Shown here piece after piece: positions 36,287-54,554 of a stretch of 64,000 nucleotides of DNA. The stretch covers positions 6,830 through 70,829 of the forward strand of contig CAWJDX010000005.1 of the NCBI GenBank assembly GCA_963841755.1, given 5' to 3'. The notes beneath the pieces are model-generated. The model was not told where the DNA came from. It did no database searches and was given only the letters and a program-made list of their open reading frames with translations. The stretch's first letter is position 1. Every line of letters begins with the position of its first letter. The position numbers were made by a program, and so were the translations under genes. This DNA is from an uncultured Candidatus Rokubacteria bacterium (GTDB taxonomy: Bacteria > Methylomirabilota > Methylomirabilia > Rokubacteriales > CSP1-6).

Positions 36287-37225
36287 GTGATCGCGGTGAC
36301 CATCGACGAGATCGAGACCTTCGTCTCGATCGCCCGCCGCGGCGGCTTCGCCCGCGCCGCGGAGAGCCTGCACCGCTCCCAGCCCGCGATCAGCCGGCGC
36401 GTCGAGATGCTCGAGCAGCAGCTCGGCACCCCGCTCTTCGAGCGGGTGCGCGGCGGCGTGATCCTGACCGAGGCCGGCCGCACCCTGCTGCCCTACGCGG
36501 AGGCGGTGCTGGCCGGTCTGAAGGACGGTGCGGAGGCGGTGCGGGGCCTCGCGCGCGGCGAGCGGGGCGCGGTCTCGGTGGCGCTGGTGGGGACGCTCGC
36601 CAGCACCCGCTTCGCGGGCATGCTGCGCCAGTTCGGCCAGCGTCATCCGTCCGTGAAGCTCGAGCTGCGGACCGCGAACAGCGAGGAGGTCAGCGACCTG
36701 GTGCGGCGCGGCGAGGCCACCCTGGGGCTCCGGTACTTCACCGACACGGATCCGGGGCTCGTCTCGGAGCAGGTCACCGAGGAGGCCCTCGTGCTCGTCT
36801 GCTCGCCGGATCACCGCCTCGCCGGCCGCCGGGTGCGCGACCCCGGCGCCCTCGCGGGCGAGCGCTGGGTGGCCTTTCCTCCCCGGCGCCGGCGGCGCGA
36901 GCCCTTCGCCACCGCGCTCGAGCAGCGGCTCGCCGCGGCCGGCATCGAGGCGGCGGAGATCGTCCGCATCGACAGCCTCACCGCGCAGAAGCGACTGGTC
37001 GAGGCGGGGTTCGGGATCGCGCTCCTCATCGAGAGCAGCGTGCAGGAGGAGCTGCGCCTGGGCTCGCTCGAGATCATCGACGCGCCCGCGCTGCGGGGCG
37101 GCGTGCCGGTGACCCTGGTGCGACGCCGCAACGGGTACCTGAGCGGGGCCGCGCAGAGCCTCGTGGCGGTGATCAAGGCGGGCGCGACGACGCGCGCCCG
37201 CCGCCGACGGGCGGCCGGCCGGTGA
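36287..37225 (+). CDS. LysR family transcriptional regulator
   Basis: The N-terminal wHTH is IETFVSIARRGGFARAAESLHRSQPAISRRVEMLEQQLG. The alternative start is GTG 36296. Confidence 0.9.
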   Translation: MIAVTIDEIETFVSIARRGGFARAAESLHRSQPAISRRVEMLEQQLGTPLFERVRGGVILTEAGRTLLPYAEAVLAGLKDGAEAVRGLARGERGAVSVALVGTLASTRFAGMLRQFGQRHPSVKLELRTANSEEVSDLVRRGEATLGLRYFTDTDPGLVSEQVTEEALVLVCSPDHRLAGRRVRDPGALAGERWVAFPPRRRRREPFATALEQRLAAAGIEAAEIVRIDSLTAQKRLVEAGFGIALLIESSVQEELRLGSLEIIDAPALRGGVPVTLVRRRNGYLSGAAQSLVAVIKAGATTRARRRRAAGR

Positions 37226-37267: not shown

Positions 37268-38650
37268 GTGATCTTCCAGCAGCTGCTGAACGAGGAGGCT
37301 GGCTGTCTCTCCTACCTGATCGGCTGCTCGCAGGCCGGCCAGGGCATCATCGTCGATCCGGCGCGGGACCGGGTGGACGACTACGTGGCCCTGGCCCGAC
37401 GCAAGGGGCTCACCGTCACCGGCATCGTCGAGACGCACGTCCACGCCGACCACATCTCGGGTAACCAGGCCCTGGCCGCCAAGACCGGCGCGCGCATCCA
37501 CATCCACCCGGCCGCCAACGCGGCCTTCGCCCACGAGCCGGTCGAGCACGGCCGGCAGCTGCGGGTGGGAAGCGTGGCCCTCGATGTCGTCCACACGCCC
37601 GGCCACACCCCGGAGAGCATCTCGCTGCTGATCACCGATCTGAGCCGGGGCAACGAGCCGTGGTTCGTGCTGACCGGGGACACGCTCTTCGTGGGCGACG
37701 TCGGCCGGCCGGACTTCGGCGGCGAGCAGGCCGCGGCCCGGCTCTACGCGAGCCTCACCGAGCGTCTGCTCCGCCTGCCCGACAGCGTGGAGGTCTATCC
37801 CGCGCACGGAGCCGGCTCGAGCTGCGGCCGGGCCATGTCGAGCAAGACCGCGACCACGATCGGCTTCGAGCGGCGCTTCAACACCGCTCTGCAGGCGAGC
37901 GGGGTCGACGAGTTCGTGCGCCACCTGATGACCGGCCTGCCGCCCAAGCCGCCGAACTTCGACCGCATCATCGCCCGCAACCGGGCCCAGGCCCTCGCCG
38001 CCGGCGGGCCGCCGCGCCCGCTGTCGGCCGCGCAGACCCGCGAGGCCATCGACAAGGGCGCCTTCGTGCTCGACGTGCGCACCCCCGAGGAGTACGGGCA
38101 GGGCCACATCCCCGGGGCGATCCACGTGTGGATCGAGAGCCCGCAGTTCGCGAACCGCGCCGGGCTGTTCATCCCCGCGGAGGCGCCGGTGGTCCTCGTG
38201 GTGTCGAGCCCCACCGACCTCGAGCGCGCGGTGCAGGGGCTCGGGCGGATCGGGCTCGACGCGATCGCGGGACAGCTGCAGTGGGGCATGACCGAGTGGA
38301 AGAGCCAGGGCTTGCCGATGGAGCAGGTGCCCCAGATCTCGGTGCACGACCTCGCCACCATGAAGGACGAGCGGCCCGACCTGGTGGTGATCGACGTGCG
38401 CGAGCCCTTCGAGTGGGACGAGGGCCACATCGAGGGCGCGCTCCACGTGCCGATGAGCGAGGCCCTCGCCCGGAAGGACCTGGTGCCGGCCGGTCGCCCG
38501 AAGGCGGTGCTCTGCGCGGGCGGGCTGCGCTCCAGCACGGTGATCAGCGCGCTCAGCCGCGCCGGCCTCACGAACTGGTACAACGTCATCGGCGGGATGA
38601 CCGCCTGGCAGAAGGGGGGCTACAGCACGGTGAAGCGGGCCGCTCCATGA
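37268..38650 (+). CDS. metallo-beta-lactamase (ETHE1/persulfide-dioxygenase-like) fused to two rhodanese domains
   Basis: THVHADHISG, TPGHTPESI and DTLFVGDVGRPDF. Two rhodanese modules follow, the second with active-site loop CAGGLRS. Confidence 0.8.
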   Translation: MIFQQLLNEEAGCLSYLIGCSQAGQGIIVDPARDRVDDYVALARRKGLTVTGIVETHVHADHISGNQALAAKTGARIHIHPAANAAFAHEPVEHGRQLRVGSVALDVVHTPGHTPESISLLITDLSRGNEPWFVLTGDTLFVGDVGRPDFGGEQAAARLYASLTERLLRLPDSVEVYPAHGAGSSCGRAMSSKTATTIGFERRFNTALQASGVDEFVRHLMTGLPPKPPNFDRIIARNRAQALAAGGPPRPLSAAQTREAIDKGAFVLDVRTPEEYGQGHIPGAIHVWIESPQFANRAGLFIPAEAPVVLVVSSPTDLERAVQGLGRIGLDAIAGQLQWGMTEWKSQGLPMEQVPQISVHDLATMKDERPDLVVIDVREPFEWDEGHIEGALHVPMSEALARKDLVPAGRPKAVLCAGGLRSSTVISALSRAGLTNWYNVIGGMTAWQKGGYSTVKRAAP

Positions 38651-39315
38651 GTGACGCGAACGGCTTCGACTATCCCGTGATGGCCCGGGCCCTGATCCTG
38701 GGCGACAAGGACACGGTGGCCCGCAAGACCCAGGAAGGCCTGGCCCTGGCGATGGATCCGAAGGATCTCATCTTCCGCGGGCTCATCCCGGGCATGGACG
38801 TGGTGGGCGAGAAGTTCCGCCGCAACGAGTACTACGTGCCGCAGGTCCTCCTGTCCGCGCGGGCCATGTACGCGGGCCTCGACCTGCTCAAGCCGCTCAT
38901 CACCCAGGCGGGAGGGGCCGGGCAGAACCTGGGGGTGATGGTCATCGGCACCGCCCAGGGTGACCTGCACGACATCGGCAAGAACCTGGTCGCGATGATG
39001 CTGGAGGGCGCGGGCTTCAAGGTGATCAACCTCGGACGGGACGTGGCGCCGGAGAAGTTCGTGGCCGCGGTGAAGGAGCACGACGCCCAGATCGTGGGGA
39101 TCTCGGCGCTCATGACCACCACCATGCCGGCCATGAAGCGCACCATCGACGCGCTCGAGAAGGCGGGGCTGCGGGCCCAGGTCAAGGTCATGATCGGGGG
39201 CGCGCCGGTGAACCAGGCCTACGCGGACGAGATCGGCGCGGACGGCTACGCCAAGGATTCGACGATCGCGGTGGTGCGCGCCAAGGAGCTGCTGGGCGTG
39301 CCGGTGAACGCGTGA
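38647..39315 (+). CDS. cobalamin-binding corrinoid protein (B12 cap plus Rossmann domain)
   Basis: ATG 38647 overlaps the preceding stop. The DxHxxG motif is GDLHDIGKNLV, with ...SALMTTTM... and GGAPV. Confidence 0.85.
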   Translation: MSDANGFDYPVMARALILGDKDTVARKTQEGLALAMDPKDLIFRGLIPGMDVVGEKFRRNEYYVPQVLLSARAMYAGLDLLKPLITQAGGAGQNLGVMVIGTAQGDLHDIGKNLVAMMLEGAGFKVINLGRDVAPEKFVAAVKEHDAQIVGISALMTTTMPAMKRTIDALEKAGLRAQVKVMIGGAPVNQAYADEIGADGYAKDSTIAVVRAKELLGVPVNA

Positions 39316-40260
39316 TGGCGACGCGCGCGCGCGGCTGGGAGATCGTGGAGCGCGTCCGCGCGGGCGAGCGCCTGATCTTCGACGGCGGCTACGGCACCGC
39401 GCTGTTCGACGCGGGCCTCGAGAACGGCGACTGCCCGGAGCTGTGGAACGACACCCACCCCGACGTGGTGCGGGGCATCCACCGCGGCTACTTCGACGCG
39501 GGCTCCCAGCTGGTCGAGACCAACACCTTCGGGGGCACCGCGCTCAAGCTGCACGAGTACGACGAGCGGTACGGCCACGACATGGGGGCGCGCACCCGCG
39601 AGCTGAACGACAAGGGCGCGCGCCTGGCCCGGGCCGCCTGCCCGCCCGGCGGCTACGTGGCCGGCTCGATCGGGCCCACCAGCTACCTGCCGCTCGACTA
39701 CGGGGTCGGCAAGAACGTGGCCACCGACGAGGAGTACTTCGAGACATTCCGGGAACAAGCCCAGGCCCTTGCCGCGGGTGGGGTGGACTGCTTCGCGGTC
39801 GAGACCATGATGTTCCCGCTGGAGGCGGCCGCCGCGATCCGCGCCTGCAAGGCGGTGGCGGATCTGCCGGTGATGGCGACCATGTTCTTCCAGTACGAGG
39901 AGCTGCACGACCGCGACCGCACGATGTGGGGCGACAGCCCGGCCGACGTCGCGCGCCAGCTCCTCGACGCGGGGGCGGACATCGTGGGGATGAACTGCGG
40001 GCGCGGTCCCGACCGCGCCATCGTGATCATCCGCGAGATGCGCGCAGGTCACCGACGCGCCGCTCATCGCGTACCCGAACGCGGGCCTGCCGATCACCAC
40101 CGGCGGCCGGACCACCTACGAGCTCGGCCCGGAGGCGATGGCCAAGGACTACCCGGCGCTGCTCGACGCGGGGTGCAACATCGTGGGCGGCTGCTGCGGC
40201 TCGAATCCGGAGCACATCCGCCTCATCGCCGACGTGGTGCGCTCCCGCCGCGCGCGGTGA
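39315..40260 (+). pseudogene. stand-alone homocysteine/thiol S-methyltransferase domain protein (MetH Hcy-module-like), frameshifted as sequenced (near 40046)
   Basis: LIFDGGYGT...VETNTFG...GMNCG. After IIREMRA the reading VTDAPLIAYPNAGLP...VGGCCGSNPEHI is in frame +1, ending at TGA 40258-40260. The zinc Cys ligands (C, CC) are present. Confidence 0.8.
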
Positions 40261-41013
40261 CCGCGCCCGCGTTCTCCCTCCTCTCCCGCACCCCGGTCGT
40301 CCTCGAGGGACTGCCGCTCTCCATCGATCGCGACGAGGTCCTGCGCTTCCAGGGCTACCAGAAGGGCGTCGACCTGCCGAGCCCGGTGGTGGTGGCCATC
40401 TTCGAGGAGGCGCTCGCGCTCGGGGAGCGCCTGATGGCGCCGCGCCTGGTCTACCGCGCGGCCCCGGTGGACGAGCGCGGCGCGGACCTGATCGCGGCGG
40501 GCGGCGAGCGGCTCGCCATCCCCCAGATCGGCCGCCTGTGGGGGCCGATCGAGGCGGTCGGGGCCGGCATCTGCACGGTCGGCGAGGCCATCGAGACCCG
40601 CGTGCGCGCCCTCTTCGACGCGCGCGAGTTCCCCCTCGCGGTGATGCTCGACAGCGTGGGCTCGGCCGCGGCCGAGAGCCTCGCCGAGTACGCCAACGAC
40701 CTCCTCTGCCAGGCGGCCCTGCCGCAGGGGCTCAAGGTCACCAACCGGGTCAGCCCGGGCTACGCGGGCTGGGACACCGCCGAGCAGGCGCGGCTCTTCC
40801 GGATCTGCCCGGGCGATCCGATCGGGGTGCGAGCTCAACGAGGCGTGCTTCATGACCCCGGCCAAGTCCATCAGCTGGCTGGTCGGGCTCGGGCCGGAGG
40901 CGCGGGTGGACCACTACTTCACCCAGTGCCGGCGCTGCTGGATGCGCGACTGCGCCTACCGCCGGGCCCCCGCCGCCGTCACGGTGCAGCGGCCCGGCGC
41001 GGGGGTGTGGTGA
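40257..41013 (+). pseudogene. MetH activation (AdoMet-binding/reactivation) domain-like protein with C-terminal Cys cluster, frameshifted as sequenced (near 40830)
   Basis: GTG 40257 overlaps the preceding stop (GTGA). It reads ...NRVSPGYAGWDTAEQARLFRICPGDPIGV|ELNEACFMTPAKSISWLVGLG...CRRCWMRDCAY, ending at TGA 41011-41013. Confidence 0.65.
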
Positions 41014-41028
41014 TAGGCTGGAGGTCTC

Positions 41029-41560
41029 ATGGGCGACAACGTGGTGCTGGTGGGGTTCATGGGCGCGGGCAAATCCTCGGTGGGGCGGCTCCTCGCCCGC
41101 CGGATGGGCCGCTGCTTCGTCGAGACCGACGACATGATCACCGCGCGCGAGGGCCGCTCGATCCCCGAGATCTTCGCCGAGCGCGGCGAGGCGCACTTCC
41201 GCGCCCTCGAGGAGGAGACGGTGCGGCTGCTCGCGCTCAAGTCGGGTGACGTGATCGCCACCGGCGGCGGCCTCTACTGCCGCGACGGGCCGGCCCGAGG
41301 CCCTCCGCGCGATCGGCACCGTGGTGTGGCTCACCGGCAGCTTCGACGTGCTCTACGAGCGGGCGCGCCGCATGGGCGAGCGCCCGATGCTGGCGGGCCG
41401 GACCCGGGACGAGGTCGCCGACATCTATCACGCGCGCGAGGCCTACTACCGCCAGGCCGATCTCACCGTCGATACCACCGGCCGCAACACCGACCAGGTG
41501 GTCACCCAGGTCCTCCTCGCGCTCCGGCCGCATCTCTCCCGTGCCGGGGGGAGCCGGTAG
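41029..41560 (+). pseudogene. aroK: shikimate kinase, frameshifted as sequenced (near 41292)
   Basis: VVLVGFMGAGKSSVGRLLA...FVETDD...FRALEE...VIATGGG. It then continues PEALRAIGTVVWLTGSFDVLYERA... in frame +1 (ORF 41321..41560). Confidence 0.85.
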
Positions 41561-41563
41561 GCC

Positions 41564-43411
41564 GTGCCCTCTCCGCTCCTGACCCGCCTCGGCGAGCGCC
41601 CGCTCCTCTGCGACGGCGCCATGGGCACCATGCTCTACGCCCGCGGGGTGCCGCTCGACGCCTGCTTCGACGTGCTGAACCTCAACGAGCCCAAGATCGT
41701 GCAGTCGATCCACGCCGAGTACATCCAGGCCGGCTCGGACCTGATCGAGACCAACACCTTCGGGGCCAACCGCTTCAAGCTGGCCGCGCACGGCCTGCAG
41801 GGCCGGGTGCGCGAGATCAACCTGCGCGGGGCCAAGCTCGCGCGGGACGTGCGCGAGAGCATGGGCCGCGACGTGCTCGTGGTGGGCTCGATCGGGCCGC
41901 TCGGCAAGTACCTGGCGCCGCTCGGCAGCATCGAGCCCGAGGAGGCGCGGCTCGCGTTCCACGAGCAGGCGGAGGGGCTGCTCGAGGGCGGGGTCGACGC
42001 GTTCGTGATCGAGACGTTCTCCGATCTCACCGAGATGGGGCTCGCGGTGGAGGCGGTGCGGGCGCTCACCGATCTGCCGATCGTGGCCGAGGTCGCCTTC
42101 ACCGACGACGGGGTGACGTTCACCGGGCGGTCCGCCGCCGAGGTGGTCCGCGCGCTCCGCGAGCTGCCGATCCAGGTGGTGGGGGCCAACTGCTCGGTCG
42201 GGTCGAGCGTGCTCTACGACATCCTCGAGCAGATGCTGCCCGAGGTCGGCGGCCTCCACCTGGTCATCCAGCCCAACGCGGGCCTGCCGAGCCGGGTCGG
42301 CGAGCGCCTCATGTATCTCTCGTCGCCCGGCTACATGGCCGACTACGCGGCGCGCATGATCGTGGCCGGCGCGCGGATGGTCGGCGGCTGCTGCGGCACG
42401 ACGCCCCAGCACGTCCGGGCCATGCGGGAGGCCCTCGATCGCCTCGCCCCCCAGCGGAGCGCGGCCCGGGTCGAGCCGGTGCGCCGGGCCCGCGTGGAGG
42501 CGGCGGAGCCCACCGGGCTCGTCACCACCGCGCCGCCCACCCTGCTCGAGCGGCGGCTCGAGGCGCGCGAGTTCGCGGTCACCGTCGAGCTGGATCCGCC
42601 GCGGGGCCACAACATCGAGAAGCTGGTGCAGGGGGCGAAGCTGCTCAAGGAGCGCGGGGTCGAGATCGTCGACATCAACGACGGCTCGCTCGGCCGCGTC
42701 CGGATGTCGGTGCTGCCGACCGCGATGTTGATCCGCGACGCGAGCGGGCTCGACATCAACATGCACTTCACGTGTCGCGACCGGAACCTGATGGGCATCC
42801 AGGCCGATCTCCTCGGCGCGCACGCGGTCGACATCCGCAACATCCTCGCGATGACCGGCGACCCGCCGCGCGCGGGCGACTACGTCAACTCCACCGCGGT
42901 CTTCGACGTGGACGCGATCGGGCTGATCCGCGTCCTCGCGGGCATGAACCGCGGCCTCGACGCCACCGGCACCTCGATCGGGGAGCCCACGTCCTTCTGC
43001 GTGGGAGTGGCCCTGAACCCCGCCGCCGCCGAGCCGGAGCGCGAGATGGAGCGCTTCCTCGCCAAGGTCGAGGCGGGCGCGCGGTGGGTGCAGACCCAGC
43101 CGGTCTACGACCTCGAGGTGCTCGAGCGGTTCTTCGCCCGCACCCGATCGCCGATCCCGCTGCTGGTGGGGATCATGCCGCTCCATTCGTCCCGGCACGC
43201 CGAGTTCCTGCACAACGAGGTGCCCGGCATCACGGTGCCGGACGGCGTGCGCGCGCGGATGAAGGAGGCGGGCGAGCGCGGGCTGCGCGCCGGGATCGAG
43301 ATGGCCCAGGGGCTGCTCCGCGACGTCCGCGCGCGGCACGCGGGCGCCTACCTGATGCCCTCCTTCGGGCGCTTCGAGGTCGTGGCCGAGGTGCTGGACG
43401 CCCTGCACTGA
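41564..43411 (+). CDS. bifunctional homocysteine S-methyltransferase / 5,10-methylenetetrahydrofolate reductase (YitJ-type architecture)
   Basis: 615-aa intact ORF. The N-terminus has LLCDGAMGT...IETNTFG...GANCS...GGCCGTTPQH. The C-terminal MTHFR fold has VELDPPRG...HFTCRDRN. Confidence 0.85.
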   Translation: MPSPLLTRLGERPLLCDGAMGTMLYARGVPLDACFDVLNLNEPKIVQSIHAEYIQAGSDLIETNTFGANRFKLAAHGLQGRVREINLRGAKLARDVRESMGRDVLVVGSIGPLGKYLAPLGSIEPEEARLAFHEQAEGLLEGGVDAFVIETFSDLTEMGLAVEAVRALTDLPIVAEVAFTDDGVTFTGRSAAEVVRALRELPIQVVGANCSVGSSVLYDILEQMLPEVGGLHLVIQPNAGLPSRVGERLMYLSSPGYMADYAARMIVAGARMVGGCCGTTPQHVRAMREALDRLAPQRSAARVEPVRRARVEAAEPTGLVTTAPPTLLERRLEAREFAVTVELDPPRGHNIEKLVQGAKLLKERGVEIVDINDGSLGRVRMSVLPTAMLIRDASGLDINMHFTCRDRNLMGIQADLLGAHAVDIRNILAMTGDPPRAGDYVNSTAVFDVDAIGLIRVLAGMNRGLDATGTSIGEPTSFCVGVALNPAAAEPEREMERFLAKVEAGARWVQTQPVYDLEVLERFFARTRSPIPLLVGIMPLHSSRHAEFLHNEVPGITVPDGVRARMKEAGERGLRAGIEMAQGLLRDVRARHAGAYLMPSFGRFEVVAEVLDALH

Positions 43412-43413
43412 CC

Positions 43414-44763
43414 ATGGCGGCCATGTACGAGCTGGGCGCCTCCGAAGCCGCCCGGCGCATCCGCGCCGGCGCGCTCTCGCCGTCCAACCTGGTCGCGGCC
43501 TGTCTCAAGCGCGATCGACGCCACCGAGCCCGCGGTCGGGGCCTGGGTGCGGCTCGACCGCGACGCGGCCGCGCGGGTGGCGGTGCAGCGCGACATCGAG
43601 GCCCGCGAGGGCCGCTACATGGGCCCGCTCCACGGCGTGCCGATCGCGCTCAAGGACATCTTCGACGCGGCGGGGGTGCCGACCACCTCCGGCGCGCCCG
43701 CGTGGGCCACGCGCACCCCCGCGCTCGACGCGACCGCGGTGGCCCGGCTGCGCGGGGCGGGGGCGGTGCCGATGGGCAAGCTCGTCACCACGCCCTTCGC
43801 GTTCCTCGACCCGAGCGCGACGCGCAACCCGTGGAATCCCGAGCACACGCCGGGCGGCTCCTCGAGCGGCCCGGCGGCGGCGGTGGCCGCGCGCATGGTG
43901 CCGCTGGCGCTCGGCTCGCAGACGGTGGGCTCGGTGCTGCGGCCCGCCGCCTACTGCGGGGTGGTCGGCTTCAAGCCGACCCACGGCCGCATCAGCGTGG
44001 CGGGCGTGCTGGCCCTCGCCGAGAGCCTCGACCACGTCGGGGTCTTCGCCCGCTGCGTCGAGGACTGCGCGCTCGCGCTGTCGCTGCTGGCCGGGCTCGA
44101 TCCGGCCGATCCGCACTCGAGCCCGCGGGCCGCCCGAGCCCTATCTGGCCGCGATCGCCGCGCCCGCGGCCGCCGCGCATCGGCGTGCTGGCCGGGCTGG
44201 TGGCGCAGGCGACGCCCGAGATGGCGAAGCACCTGGACGCCATCATGCGCGGGCTCGAGGGAGCGGGCGCGCGGCTCGTCGACGTGGACCTGCCCGACTC
44301 GTTCCCGGCGCTGCGCCGGGCGGGCGAGACGGTGCTGGCGGTCGAGGCCGCGCACGCGCACGCCGCGCTCTACGCCGCGCACGCGGCCGACTATCCACCT
44401 CGCATCAAGGAGCTGATCGAGCGGGGCCACGCGGTCTCCGCGCTGCAGTACCTGGCGGCCCAGGACGCCCGCCGCCACGCGCGCGACGACCTGGACGCGG
44501 TGGCCACGCGCCACGACGTGCTGCTCGCCCCCACCATCGGCGCCCCCGCGCCGCGGGGCCTCGCCTCCACCGGCGACCCGGGCTTCTGCGCGCCGTTCAC
44601 CTTCGCGGGACTGCCCGCGATCTCGCTGCCGACCGGCGTGGATCCGTCGGGTCTGCCGCTGGCGCTGCAGCTCATCGGCCCGGCGTGGGGCGAGGCGCGG
44701 CTGCTCGCGGCCTCCGCCTGGTGCGAGCGCGTGATCCGCTTCGACGCGGAGCCGTCGCTCTGA
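43414..44763 (+). pseudogene. amidase-signature enzyme, three frameshifts as sequenced (near 43513, 44123, 44171)
   Basis: MAAMYELGASEAARRIRAGALSP...|IDATEPAVGAWVRLD...GGSSSGPAAAVAA...GSQTVGSVLRPAA...|...PEPYLAAIAAPAA|PRIGVLAGL... to stop 44763. Each junction is a +1 shift. Confidence 0.8.
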
Positions 44764-52626: not shown

Positions 52627-54468
52627 CTACAAGATCCGCTCGTAGCGGCCCAGGTCGTGGGCCGCGTCCATGAACCACTTCACGATCTCGGGATTCGACC
52701 GCGGCGGGATCTCGCACGAGGTGGACAGGATGAAGCCCGACTGCCGCGCCGCGGTGTCGATGCAGCGGCCCACCTCCCCCTCGATCTGCTGACGGGTCGC
52801 CTTCTCGAACATCGTCGCGTCGACGTTGCCGATGGCCACCGCGCGGCCCTTGGCCACCTGCACGAACCGCTCGAGCTGGTCCACGTGCAGGGTCGGATCC
52901 GACTGCTGGTCGAGATCGAACGAGATGGTGGTGAAGCCACAGCCGATCAGGTCCTCGAAGATCGGGTAGGTGACGCCGCAGATGTGGGCGGTGACGCCGA
53001 CCTTCTTGGCCTTGAAGTGGTCCACCAGCTCCTTGTGGTAGGGCGCGATGAACTCCCGGTAGTTGTCCGGAGAGACCAGGCTGATCGACGCGGTGGGCTC
53101 GGAGAACGAGAGCCCGATCTTGGTCTTCGCGATCGCGTCGCCCCAGAGCTTGCAGAAGTCGGTGGTGAGCCGCATGAGGTCGTGGATGAACTGGGGATCC
53201 TCGAAGGTGTCGAGCAGCATCATCTCCGGGTTGCGCAGCAGCATCGCGATCGTCCACGGCCCCACCGCCACCGCGCCGGTGGCCGCGGGCGGTGCCGCCT
53301 TCACGAGGGCCTCGCACTGCTCGAGGAAGCCGGGCAGCCGCGCGGTCTTGTACGGATCGGGCATCGAGAGCTTGGCCAGATCCGCCTTGTCCTCGAGGAG
53401 GTGGGTCTCGATGGAGGGCACCACGTAGTCCGAGTACTTCACCCCGCAGCCGAAGGCTTCCGCTTCCTTGGCCAGATCGTTGTAGGCGAGGACCACGTCC
53501 GGCTGGTAGCGCTCGTAGTAGTTCATCATCGCGCTGATGGCCCGGGTCGGGTTCGTGCAGTACTCCTCGATGCTGAGCCCGTCGAGCGTTCCCGCGAAGG
53601 AGGCCACGATCGGGTAGACCGGCACCCGGTCCGAGAACGAGCGCTTGTAGGCCGCCACCACCCGGTCCCGGTTGGTCAGGGCGGTCTTGCCCTTCTCCGC
53701 GTCCCAGAGCTTGTTCACCTCCATGTAGCGCGGGGGCAGCTTGGCCTCGTACTCCATGAACTGGGTGATCGGGTAGCGGATGCCCCCGTTGTGGGTGCCG
53801 CGCAGGCCCTCCACCATCTCCTCCATCCGGCTCCACGGAATGGAGAACGCCATTTCATGATCCTGGGTCTGGCCGAAGATGCGATCGCCCGAGCACGGGA
53901 GGATGACCTGCGGCTCGCCGGTCTTCATGGTGGTCACGATGATGTCCGCGCACACCGCCCGGCCCTCGAACGAGGAGGTGAGCCGGCCGCCGCGCTTCCA
54001 GAGCGCGGCCTGGGTCAGGCGCATCACCTGGGCGGGGTTGGCGTAGACGCACACCACGTGCGGCTCGAAGGTGGCGCGGTCGAGGGGAGCCACCAGGAGG
54101 CAGTGGTACTCGCCGGGGGCGAACTTGTCGATGGCGGCCTCGGAGCGCTGGCCCGCCTCCTTGGTCTCGGTGTACATGCCCTCGCACAGGGTGCCCACGT
54201 TGTAGATGGGCAGCGGCTTGTCGAAGCCGATCGCGGTGATGCCGAGCGAGCAGATGTGGTCCTCGCGGGTGAGGGCGATGGTCCAGCCGTAGCGGCGGGA
54301 CATGTCGATGACCTGGCAGCTCATGGAGAGCTTCTTGAAATCGCGCGCGGGCCGGCGGGCACGCTCGGGAATCGGCTCGTCGGCCCGGAGCATGCGGATG
54401 GCGACCGGGAAGGTCTGCGGCCTCAGGTAGGTCTGCAGCTCGCGGTCCGCCGTCTTCACGTCGATCAT
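52627..54468 (-). CDS. fusion protein: N-terminal DUF169-like domain plus C-terminal uroporphyrinogen-decarboxylase-fold (MtaA/CmuA-type) methyltransferase-like domain
   Basis: 613-aa intact ORF with a GAGGAGA RBS. The first 250 aa or so resemble DUF169 (...LSMSCQVI...CSLG...VILPCSGDR...). The remainder resembles URO-D-family methylcobamide methyltransferases (...GPWTIAMLL...AHICG...ILSTSCEIP). Confidence 0.65.
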   Translation of the reverse strand: MIDVKTADRELQTYLRPQTFPVAIRMLRADEPIPERARRPARDFKKLSMSCQVIDMSRRYGWTIALTREDHICSLGITAIGFDKPLPIYNVGTLCEGMYTETKEAGQRSEAAIDKFAPGEYHCLLVAPLDRATFEPHVVCVYANPAQVMRLTQAALWKRGGRLTSSFEGRAVCADIIVTTMKTGEPQVILPCSGDRIFGQTQDHEMAFSIPWSRMEEMVEGLRGTHNGGIRYPITQFMEYEAKLPPRYMEVNKLWDAEKGKTALTNRDRVVAAYKRSFSDRVPVYPIVASFAGTLDGLSIEEYCTNPTRAISAMMNYYERYQPDVVLAYNDLAKEAEAFGCGVKYSDYVVPSIETHLLEDKADLAKLSMPDPYKTARLPGFLEQCEALVKAAPPAATGAVAVGPWTIAMLLRNPEMMLLDTFEDPQFIHDLMRLTTDFCKLWGDAIAKTKIGLSFSEPTASISLVSPDNYREFIAPYHKELVDHFKAKKVGVTAHICGVTYPIFEDLIGCGFTTISFDLDQQSDPTLHVDQLERFVQVAKGRAVAIGNVDATMFEKATRQQIEGEVGRCIDTAARQSGFILSTSCEIPPRSNPEIVKWFMDAAHDLGRYERIL

Positions 54469-54554
54469 GAATGGTCTCCTCAGTGACGGAGGCTACGGGG
54501 GGCCTTCGGGGTTGTCAAGGGAGCGGGCCGCCTTCCGCTACAATGTGCAGTGCC

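Follow-up and report, generated by a model that had tools for sequence, protein, structure and literature searches.

The window analyzed here, a 64,000-nucleotide stretch of DNA (72% G+C) from an uncultured Candidatus Rokubacteria bacterium (GenBank assembly GCA_963841755.1, contig CAWJDX010000005.1, here C5), carries on its forward strand, at positions 37268-43411, a gene cluster in which three of the methionine synthase MetH's four modules are encoded as separate, translationally coupled proteins. The conserved unit of this cluster consists of three genes, namely those for a free corrinoid protein (gene 2), a zinc homocysteine S-methyltransferase (gene 3) and a TM0269-type reactivation protein (gene 4), together referred to as the trio. 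The explanation that we favor, with somewhat better than even confidence, is that the trio forms the half that accepts methyl groups in a corrinoid relay with methionine as its end product, that its methyl loader is encoded outside the operon and is most likely an MtaA/CmuA-type URO-D protein, and that a housekeeping operon containing aroK and the sole methylenetetrahydrofolate reductase (MTHFR) gene took up the trio in this lineage, a gene for a CstB-like protein (gene 1) being acquired in front. This explanation has its computed basis in the domain assignments, the motifs, the fold, the conserved gene order and the searches that found no known loader module. The source genome (G000) amounts to 4.97 Mb in 32 contigs and is 84% complete, and two of its congeners are 100% complete.

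A conserved corrinoid, methyltransferase and reactivation trio

The gene order of the cluster was confirmed, and its first four genes overlap at their start and stop codons, by ATGA at 38647-38650 (genes 1 and 2), TGATG at 39313-39317 (genes 2 and 3) and GTGA at 40257-40260 (genes 3 and 4). An earlier, sequence-only reading of the window had given gene order, coordinates and all three overlaps exactly, and its domain assignments, i.e., a metallo-beta-lactamase (MBL) with two rhodanese domains, a corrinoid protein, a homocysteine methyltransferase, a PF02965-like protein, a shikimate kinase (SKI) and a homocysteine methyltransferase-MTHFR fusion, were all recovered as matches to hidden Markov models, so that its description of three MetH modules as separate, coupled proteins is borne out by domains and overlaps alike. 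Its account of four coupled genes followed by aroK holds for order and overlaps, but it overlooked that gene 3, gene 4 and aroK, as assembled, each contain one +1 frame break and that none of them is an intact open reading frame (ORF) here.

Gene 2 encodes a cap and a Rossmann B12 domain (B12-binding_2, PF02607, and B12-binding, PF02310) with the motif D106-L-H-D-I-G (DxHxxG) and an SxL at residue 153. It scores about 210 bits with the NCBIfam models MtgC/MtbC/pyl_corrinoid versus 130 bits with metH, and is the only MtaC/MtgC-type corrinoid protein that tblastn found in the assembled source genome. Gene 3, when read through its frame break, matches PF02574 with 231 bits and has its zinc cysteines in GMNCG and GGCCG, which align, together with a DGG motif and a glutamate (ET), with the YitJ-N and MetH-N domains of the same genome.

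Read through in the same way, gene 4 matches PF02965 with 28.4 bits (cut-off 25) over its C-terminal third only, and a profile of 21 members of its family matches TM0269 of Thermotoga maritima (PDB 1J6R) with an E-value of 5e-24. The AlphaFold2 (AF2) model of the protein, with a predicted local distance difference test (pLDDT) score of 89.6, was matched by Foldseek to 1J6R at a template modelling (TM) score of 0.85, and also to the MetH reactivation domains of T. thermophilus, E. coli and human. Profile and fold thus agree with the earlier suggestion of a separate reactivation subunit of the Thermotoga type. The protein contains R164-V-S-P-G-Y169 (R-x-x-x-G-Y), whose P167 and G168 do not vary among the sequences of alignment A1, and which we take from E. 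coli MetH to be the motif that binds S-adenosylmethionine (AdoMet). At its C-terminus, it ends with CRRCWMRDC, a CxxCx4C tail whose cysteines (Cys224, Cys227 and Cys232) are invariant in 21 diverse family members (26-69% identity), and the tail motif is found in 106 of the 118 full-length cluster representatives of the gene 4 family. In the AF2 model, confidence is low over the tail (pLDDT about 60), as would be expected if this stretch became ordered only around a bound metal, and the tail probably holds a metal or Fe-S center involved in electron transfer. The stand-alone reactivation family comprises roughly 4,300 sequence clusters, and no published study of the three-cysteine tail on this family was found.

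Profile and fold place gene 4 in the TM0269 family, and like TM0269 (1J6R; Huang et al., 2007, cited in PMC10293825), which is the precedent for a separate repair subunit of the PF02965 type, it is a polypeptide of its own encoded beside a B12 module. TM0268 is a single chain with homocysteine, pterin and B12 domains, whereas here the homocysteine and B12 domains are separate proteins and there is no pterin domain. TM0269 stops short of the CxxCx4C tail, a hallmark of about 90% of the sampled stand-alone proteins.

Relatives of gene 4 also occur in other settings. A contig scan with the distant family member P0274 returned two loci, in one of which (L078 7052-8681, CAZNSX010000001.1, uncultured bacterium) a distant, Cys-tailed relative of gene 4 and a MeaB gene overlap at the latter's end, and parts of MetH are missing from the vicinity. 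MeaB is a chaperone GTPase of B12-dependent mutases, and the gene 4 family may serve cobalamin repair more widely. Two genomes of family f7 (G043 and G062) encode a second, divergent pair of a corrinoid and a TM0269-like protein, whose members are about 35% identical to genes 2 and 4, beside the orthologous trio (L074 7538-8923, L075 8698-10055). G030 and G031 carry a paralogue of gene 4 directly 3' of a weak pterin-binding domain, resembling the layout of a Thermotoga-like short MetH, and the weak gene 4 paralogues of genus g10 (about 33%) adjoin unrelated genes.

Synteny was compared by tblastn for 48 trio loci from about 45 genomes, and in every one of them the genes for the corrinoid protein, the methyltransferase and the reactivation protein adjoined each other in an unchanged order (families f1, f3, f4, f5, f7, f9, and f10). 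An orthologue of gene 4 was found in 164 of 251 genomes of the phylum. This 251-genome tally and that of the DUF169-URO-D fusion (see below) include the unpublished genomes G084, G116, G232 and G233, the removal of which shifts the counts by at most 4, and from which none of the 48 loci was taken. The gene neighborhood around the trio is more variable: aroK follows it in f1, f3 and f5, and a YitJ-type gene follows aroK in most f1 genera, but several others of f1, and every family except f1, lack it at this position. Upstream of the trio, f3, f4 and f5 carry a CDF cation-efflux gene (L031 3722-5681, L033 11108-13276, L037 10418-12230), preceded in f3 and f4 by a HAD hydrolase gene, while other genes take this place elsewhere; the transporter could bear on zinc or cobalt supply. 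When the conservation of the neighborhood was checked as the sequence-only reading had proposed, the order of the trio proved to be kept in seven families, but the linkage of the MBL-rhodanese gene to the corrinoid gene was found in only 9 of 26 sampled f1 genera.

The search for a methyl loader

PF00809, the pterin-binding domain, has no match in the cluster, as the sequence-only reading had stated, and no MetH-type pterin domain was found within flanks of about 8 kb in the 48 related loci. Elsewhere in the source genome, where a search for a pterin gene had been suggested, PF00809 occurs only in folP and in a full-length MetH on contig C11, a frame of 1,166 codons with both PF00809 and PF02965. 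A survey of 41 relatives likewise found PF00809 only in MetH and folP within f1, and in trio-bearing f4 genomes (91-97% complete) it is confined to folP, with MetE in place of MetH. MtrH (PF02007) was not found in the source genome, a 100%-complete congener or the trio-bearing f4 genomes, nor was the MttB family (PF06253) found in the source genome and five relatives, including the 100%-complete congener and the trio-bearing f4 genomes; the comparison of the trio loci, as indirect evidence, gave no MttB-family gene there either. With no stand-alone pterin-binding protein, MtrH or MttB found in these searches, none of these three known loader classes is available.

The sequence-only reading had counted a canonical full-length metH as evidence against an unusual system. 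The gene on C11 is such a metH, and the trio is therefore accessory in this genome, although it is not thereby shown to be an ordinary split MetH dependent on methyltetrahydrofolate (CH3-THF). Since MetH or MetE was present in every genome searched, the trio is accessory to a classical methionine synthase everywhere, and methionine auxotrophy is not expected of trio mutants.

The only candidate loader class present is that of the MtaA/CmuA-type URO-D proteins. The source genome has seven matches to the URO-D family, which include hemE and a protein that is also matched by the MetE-like PF01717, and ten core-MetE-like PF01717 matches. Most relatives (G001-G040) have 7-17 matches to PF01717, which represents the MetE C-terminal fold, a few incomplete genomes having 3-5, and most of these relatives' matches are stand-alone proteins of about 350 residues. 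The nearest member of the only recognized corrinoid-methyltransferase class in the source genome is a DUF169-URO-D fusion that scores 109.6 bits with mtaA_cmuA versus 36.4 bits with hemE (NCBIfam). It is 65-100% identical across the phylum (also in L048, L050, L060, L062, L068, and L071) and in about 65 f1 genomes it keeps a distance of 4-18 kb downstream of the trio. Its separation from aroK is 0.3 kb in f3, that from gene 4 is 3.4 kb in f10, and in f4 and f7 it is unlinked. A corrinoid activator of the RACo/RamA type, with Fer2, RACo linker, middle and ASKHA domains, is encoded at C11:110912-114693 (L080) and followed on its 3' side by two MaoC-like dehydratase genes and then a URO-D-family gene, with no corrinoid protein gene near the locus. 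RACo was found in 36 of 41 related genomes. The co-occurrence of the DUF169-URO-D fusion and RACo with the trio was considered as support for a link, but both are also present in genomes of genus g10 that lack the trio, and it therefore gives no such support. The DUF169-URO-D fusion is thus put forward tentatively, as a candidate loader rather than a finding.

Operon neighbors and assembly frame breaks

The features of the cluster and its surroundings are collected in Table 1. The aroK gene is the sole SKI gene (PF01202) found in the source genome. The YitJ-type protein matches NF006396 with 697 bits (equivalog cut-off 453) over residues 4-614 of 615, which confirms the second homocysteine-binding domain that had been noted near the trio, and it holds the sole MTHFR domain (PF02219) found in the genome. 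The LysR gene shares its frame with gene 1, from which it is separated by one stop codon and 42 nt. It lies upstream, as had been described, and on the same strand, but no LysR homologue was found upstream of the cluster in the same-genus loci L026-L030, and the gene is not a conserved part of the system. No riboswitch or other Rfam family was found in the window, and a consensus scan of the cluster for promoters and terminators found none of use for defining the operon.

Table 1. Positions of the trio and neighboring genes in the window.
Feature	Position	Strand	Basis
LysR-family regulator	36287..37225	+	Pfam HTH_1 + LysR_substrate
Gene 1, CstB-like persulfide dioxygenase with two rhodanese domains	37268..38650	+	Pfam, PDB matches, motifs
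Gene 2, stand-alone corrinoid protein	38647..39315	+	PF02607 + PF02310, NCBIfam
Gene 3, PF02574 zinc thiol (homocysteine) S-methyltransferase	39315..40260	+	Pfam, zinc Cys motifs
Gene 4, TM0269-type stand-alone MetH reactivation protein	40257..41013	+	PF02965, 1J6R, AF2/Foldseek
aroK, shikimate kinase	41029..41560	+	Pfam SKI
YitJ-type bifunctional homocysteine S-methyltransferase/MTHFR	41564..43411	+	NCBIfam NF006396
DUF169 + MtaA/CmuA-type URO-D fusion, tentative partner	52627..54492	-	Pfam, NCBIfam mtaA_cmuA

In gene 3, gene 4 and aroK, three successive genes, the reading frame switches without a stop codon, as seen in a frame plot of G+C content at third codon positions (GC3) and in stop-to-stop ORFs. 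Pfam places profile positions 1-219 of PF02574 in frame 0 and 224-283 in frame 1 of gene 3, and splits positions 1-72 and 80-158 of the SKI profile over two frames of aroK. The extra bases were located at about 40044-40047 in gene 3, where the insertion moves the last 70 codons into the next frame, at about 40830-40831 in gene 4 and at about 41285-41290 in aroK. In an alignment of 2,553 nt with the closest relative, which is 97% identical at the DNA level, exactly three single-base insertions set the window apart, and two further relatives agree with this. An intact 251-residue gene 4 protein, 98% identical, is present in public records.

That these breaks are real, with the operon decaying or its genes being expressed by programmed +1 frameshifting, is scarcely credible. 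Three breaks of the same sign in three successive genes exceed, for this locality, the average density in the genome (about 2.5 per 10 kb), which would speak for such a view; however, a codon-usage Viterbi scan counted 1,257 stop-less frame breaks in the genome, 89% of which are +1 on either strand, a bias that we take as the signature of inserted bases. Among the genes affected are folP (C5:100633-101357), broken likewise into three frames, and the amidase gene directly 3' of the cluster (43420-44763), split between frames 2 and 1; the amidase-gene neighborhood in the tblastn comparison denotes DNA-level synteny rather than a protein match, and a RidA gene is another neighbor of the cluster. 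Comparison of the three break sites showed no shared sequence, gene 4 orthologues are unbroken in 20 of 20 congeners, and GC3 is at least 0.94 on either side of every break. Programmed frameshifting and pseudogenes were rejected on the grounds of the genome-wide insertion bias and the intact orthologues. Because of this bias, the relatives without the extra bases and the intact orthologues, the three breaks are judged to be assembly errors, not biology, and the genes were read through. At about one insertion error per 4 kb, pseudogene or frameshift readings from this assembly need caution.

Alternative explanations and related systems

According to the favored explanation, the corrinoid protein (gene 2) would carry methyl-Co(III), from which the PF02574 enzyme (gene 3) would move the methyl group to zinc-activated homocysteine, yielding methionine and Co(I). 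When Co(I) is oxidized to Co(II), gene 4 would bind AdoMet via its R-x-x-P-G-Y motif and re-methylate the cofactor reductively, with the three-cysteine tail probably acting as a metal or Fe-S center in electron transfer. The loader would be encoded outside the operon and, being neither a pterin-binding protein nor MtrH or MttB, would most likely be an MtaA/CmuA-type URO-D protein encoded elsewhere. The substrate, the direction of transfer, the metal of the tail and the identity of the loader are what we infer in this scheme. Several points weigh against it: the activities of all members of the trio are predictions; MetH or MetE is already present in every genome examined, hence making methionine from CH3-THF does not require the trio; the URO-D loader rests on the presence of the class and on loose synteny, and both the DUF169-URO-D gene and RACo also occur in g10 genomes without the trio; and the source genome is only 84% complete.

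A conventional alternative, an ordinary CH3-THF-dependent split MetH that relies on another protein for its folate function, whether a pterin-type protein that escaped detection, the full-length MetH or the YitJ-type MTHFR handing over CH3-THF, is considered unlikely. The genome's only MTHFR shares the operon in most of f1, and Phaeobacter has an established MetH in three parts, the pterin gene of which is unlinked (PMC5764234), yet the 41 relatives lack a stand-alone MetH-type PF00809 protein, the trio-bearing f4 genomes (91-97% complete) have PF00809 in folP only, no MtrH was found in the genomes searched, and neither several of the f1 genera nor any other family has YitJ at the locus. To our knowledge, MTHFR does not catalyze methyl transfer to cobalt. 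It has also to be considered that the system might be self-contained and driven by AdoMet, with gene 4 acting as a catalyst that methylates the corrinoid, using AdoMet or a similar sulfonium compound, and gene 3 passing the methyl group to homocysteine or another thiol, so that no separate loader would exist, as a loader gene is conserved beside the trio in no locus, and gene 4 keeps its AdoMet motif along with an extra conserved metal-type motif. With homocysteine as the acceptor, however, such a cycle would be energetically wasteful, PF02574 enzymes carry out AdoMet-to-homocysteine transfer without cobalamin, and TM0269 and the activation domains of MetH act in repair only, so that we regard this as quite improbable.

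A connection to sulfur metabolism was suggested by gene 1, which encodes a Lactamase_B and two Rhodanese domains (Pfam), the first rhodanese homology domain being non-catalytic and the second catalytic, with the motif HVHADH at residue 57 and a C-terminal rhodanese loop, C416-AGGLR. It is matched over its full length by 3TP9 (2e-70) and 3R2U (6.5e-61) and in its persulfide dioxygenase (PDO) domain by 4YSB, 5VE3 and ETHE1 (4CHL), which is the layout of CstB. Gene 1 heads the trio in nine f1 genera (g1, g4, g5, g21, g26, g29, g32, g42, and g44), but not in 17 of the 26 sampled, with two further genera undecidable due to contig ends, and it was found ahead of the trio in none of the other six trio-bearing families; it is thus a clade-limited add-on within one family. 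The functional tie to sulfur oxidation that the sequence-only reading had drawn is not supported by this distribution. Its further suggestion of methylated-sulfur metabolism is likewise unsupported, in view of both the limited linkage of gene 1 and gene 3, which keeps the homocysteine-type signature of DGG, glutamate and three cysteines. A corrinoid methyl-thiol system working with the persulfide dioxygenase-rhodanese, in which gene 3 uses a thiol other than homocysteine, would account for the ATGA overlap of genes 1 and 2 and for their adjacency in nine genera, and corrinoid-dependent methylthiol transfer exists in methanogens. Nevertheless, it appears very improbable, given that all six other trio-keeping families and most f1 genera do without gene 1, that the gene 3 pattern is common to the homocysteine domains of MetH and YitJ, and that the cluster lacks a methylthiol-specific methyltransferase. 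Gene 1 itself shares the three-domain layout, the HxHxDH metal site and the C-terminal CxxxxR rhodanese loop of CstB from Staphylococcus aureus and of PDO-rhodanese fusions (3R2U, 3TP9, and BpPRF, 5VE3), but unlike CstB it lies outside any cst-type sulfide-stress operon and is translationally coupled to a corrinoid gene, only in a subset of one Rokubacterial family.

The favored explanation, a methyl-accepting half-relay with an external loader, can be extended to a more specific one, which is possible but doubtful at present: the trio may be a folate-independent B12 methionine synthase, loaded by a URO-D protein from an environmental methyl compound and kept active by a new kind of MetH reactivation subunit whose invariant CxxCx4C tail has its own Fe-S or metal redox center. 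Possible donors in soil would include methoxylated aromatics as well as sulfur or nitrogen compounds that carry methyl groups, and the DUF169 fusion near the trio would be the best-placed candidate for the loader.

Related arrangements are known from roseobacters, where a free MtbC/MtgC-like corrinoid protein serves a homocysteine module and alternative loaders in the split MetH and in MtgBCDE (PMC5764234, PMC12478193), so that in Ruegeria and Phaeobacter several reactions converge on the corrinoid protein as their hub. The trio resembles the three-part MetH of Phaeobacter inhibens and the MtgB/C/D/E proteins of Ruegeria pomeroyi in having a free MtbC/MtgC-like corrinoid protein and a free PF02574 homocysteine module. 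In contrast, the roseobacter system needs the stand-alone pterin protein MtgD, plus the MttB-family protein MtgB for glycine betaine, neither of which was found in the genomes searched here; repair is performed there by RamA and DUF1638, and here by a PF02965-type protein; the genes are scattered there, whereas the trio is coupled; and the roseobacter system is the sole methionine synthase, while MetH or MetE coexists with the trio. Closer in gene content is a cluster predicted in diverse bacteria, which combines a non-pyrrolysine MttB/MtgB homologue with a homocysteine methyltransferase, a corrinoid protein and an activation protein, and for which methionine synthesis from an unknown donor was proposed (Williams et al., 2022; PMC9324843). 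It has the same three acceptor-side proteins side by side, occurs in genomes that also contain a classical MetH, and shares the hypothesis of methionine synthesis from a non-folate donor, but it includes the MttB-homologue loader in the operon, whereas the Rokubacterial trio operon has no loader and the searched genomes yielded no gene of the MttB family. The Rokubacterial system differs from these in lacking a loader in the operon and any of those classes in the genome, in its Cys3-tailed repair subunit, and in the CstB-like gene of one subclade.

The three-cysteine tail may explain the source of the repair electron in such systems. If a non-folate donor were confirmed, the trio would provide a direct route from scavenged methyl groups to methionine and AdoMet in an abundant uncultured soil phylum, and the roseobacter finding of one corrinoid protein common to methionine synthesis and the catabolism of methyl compounds would be taken further.

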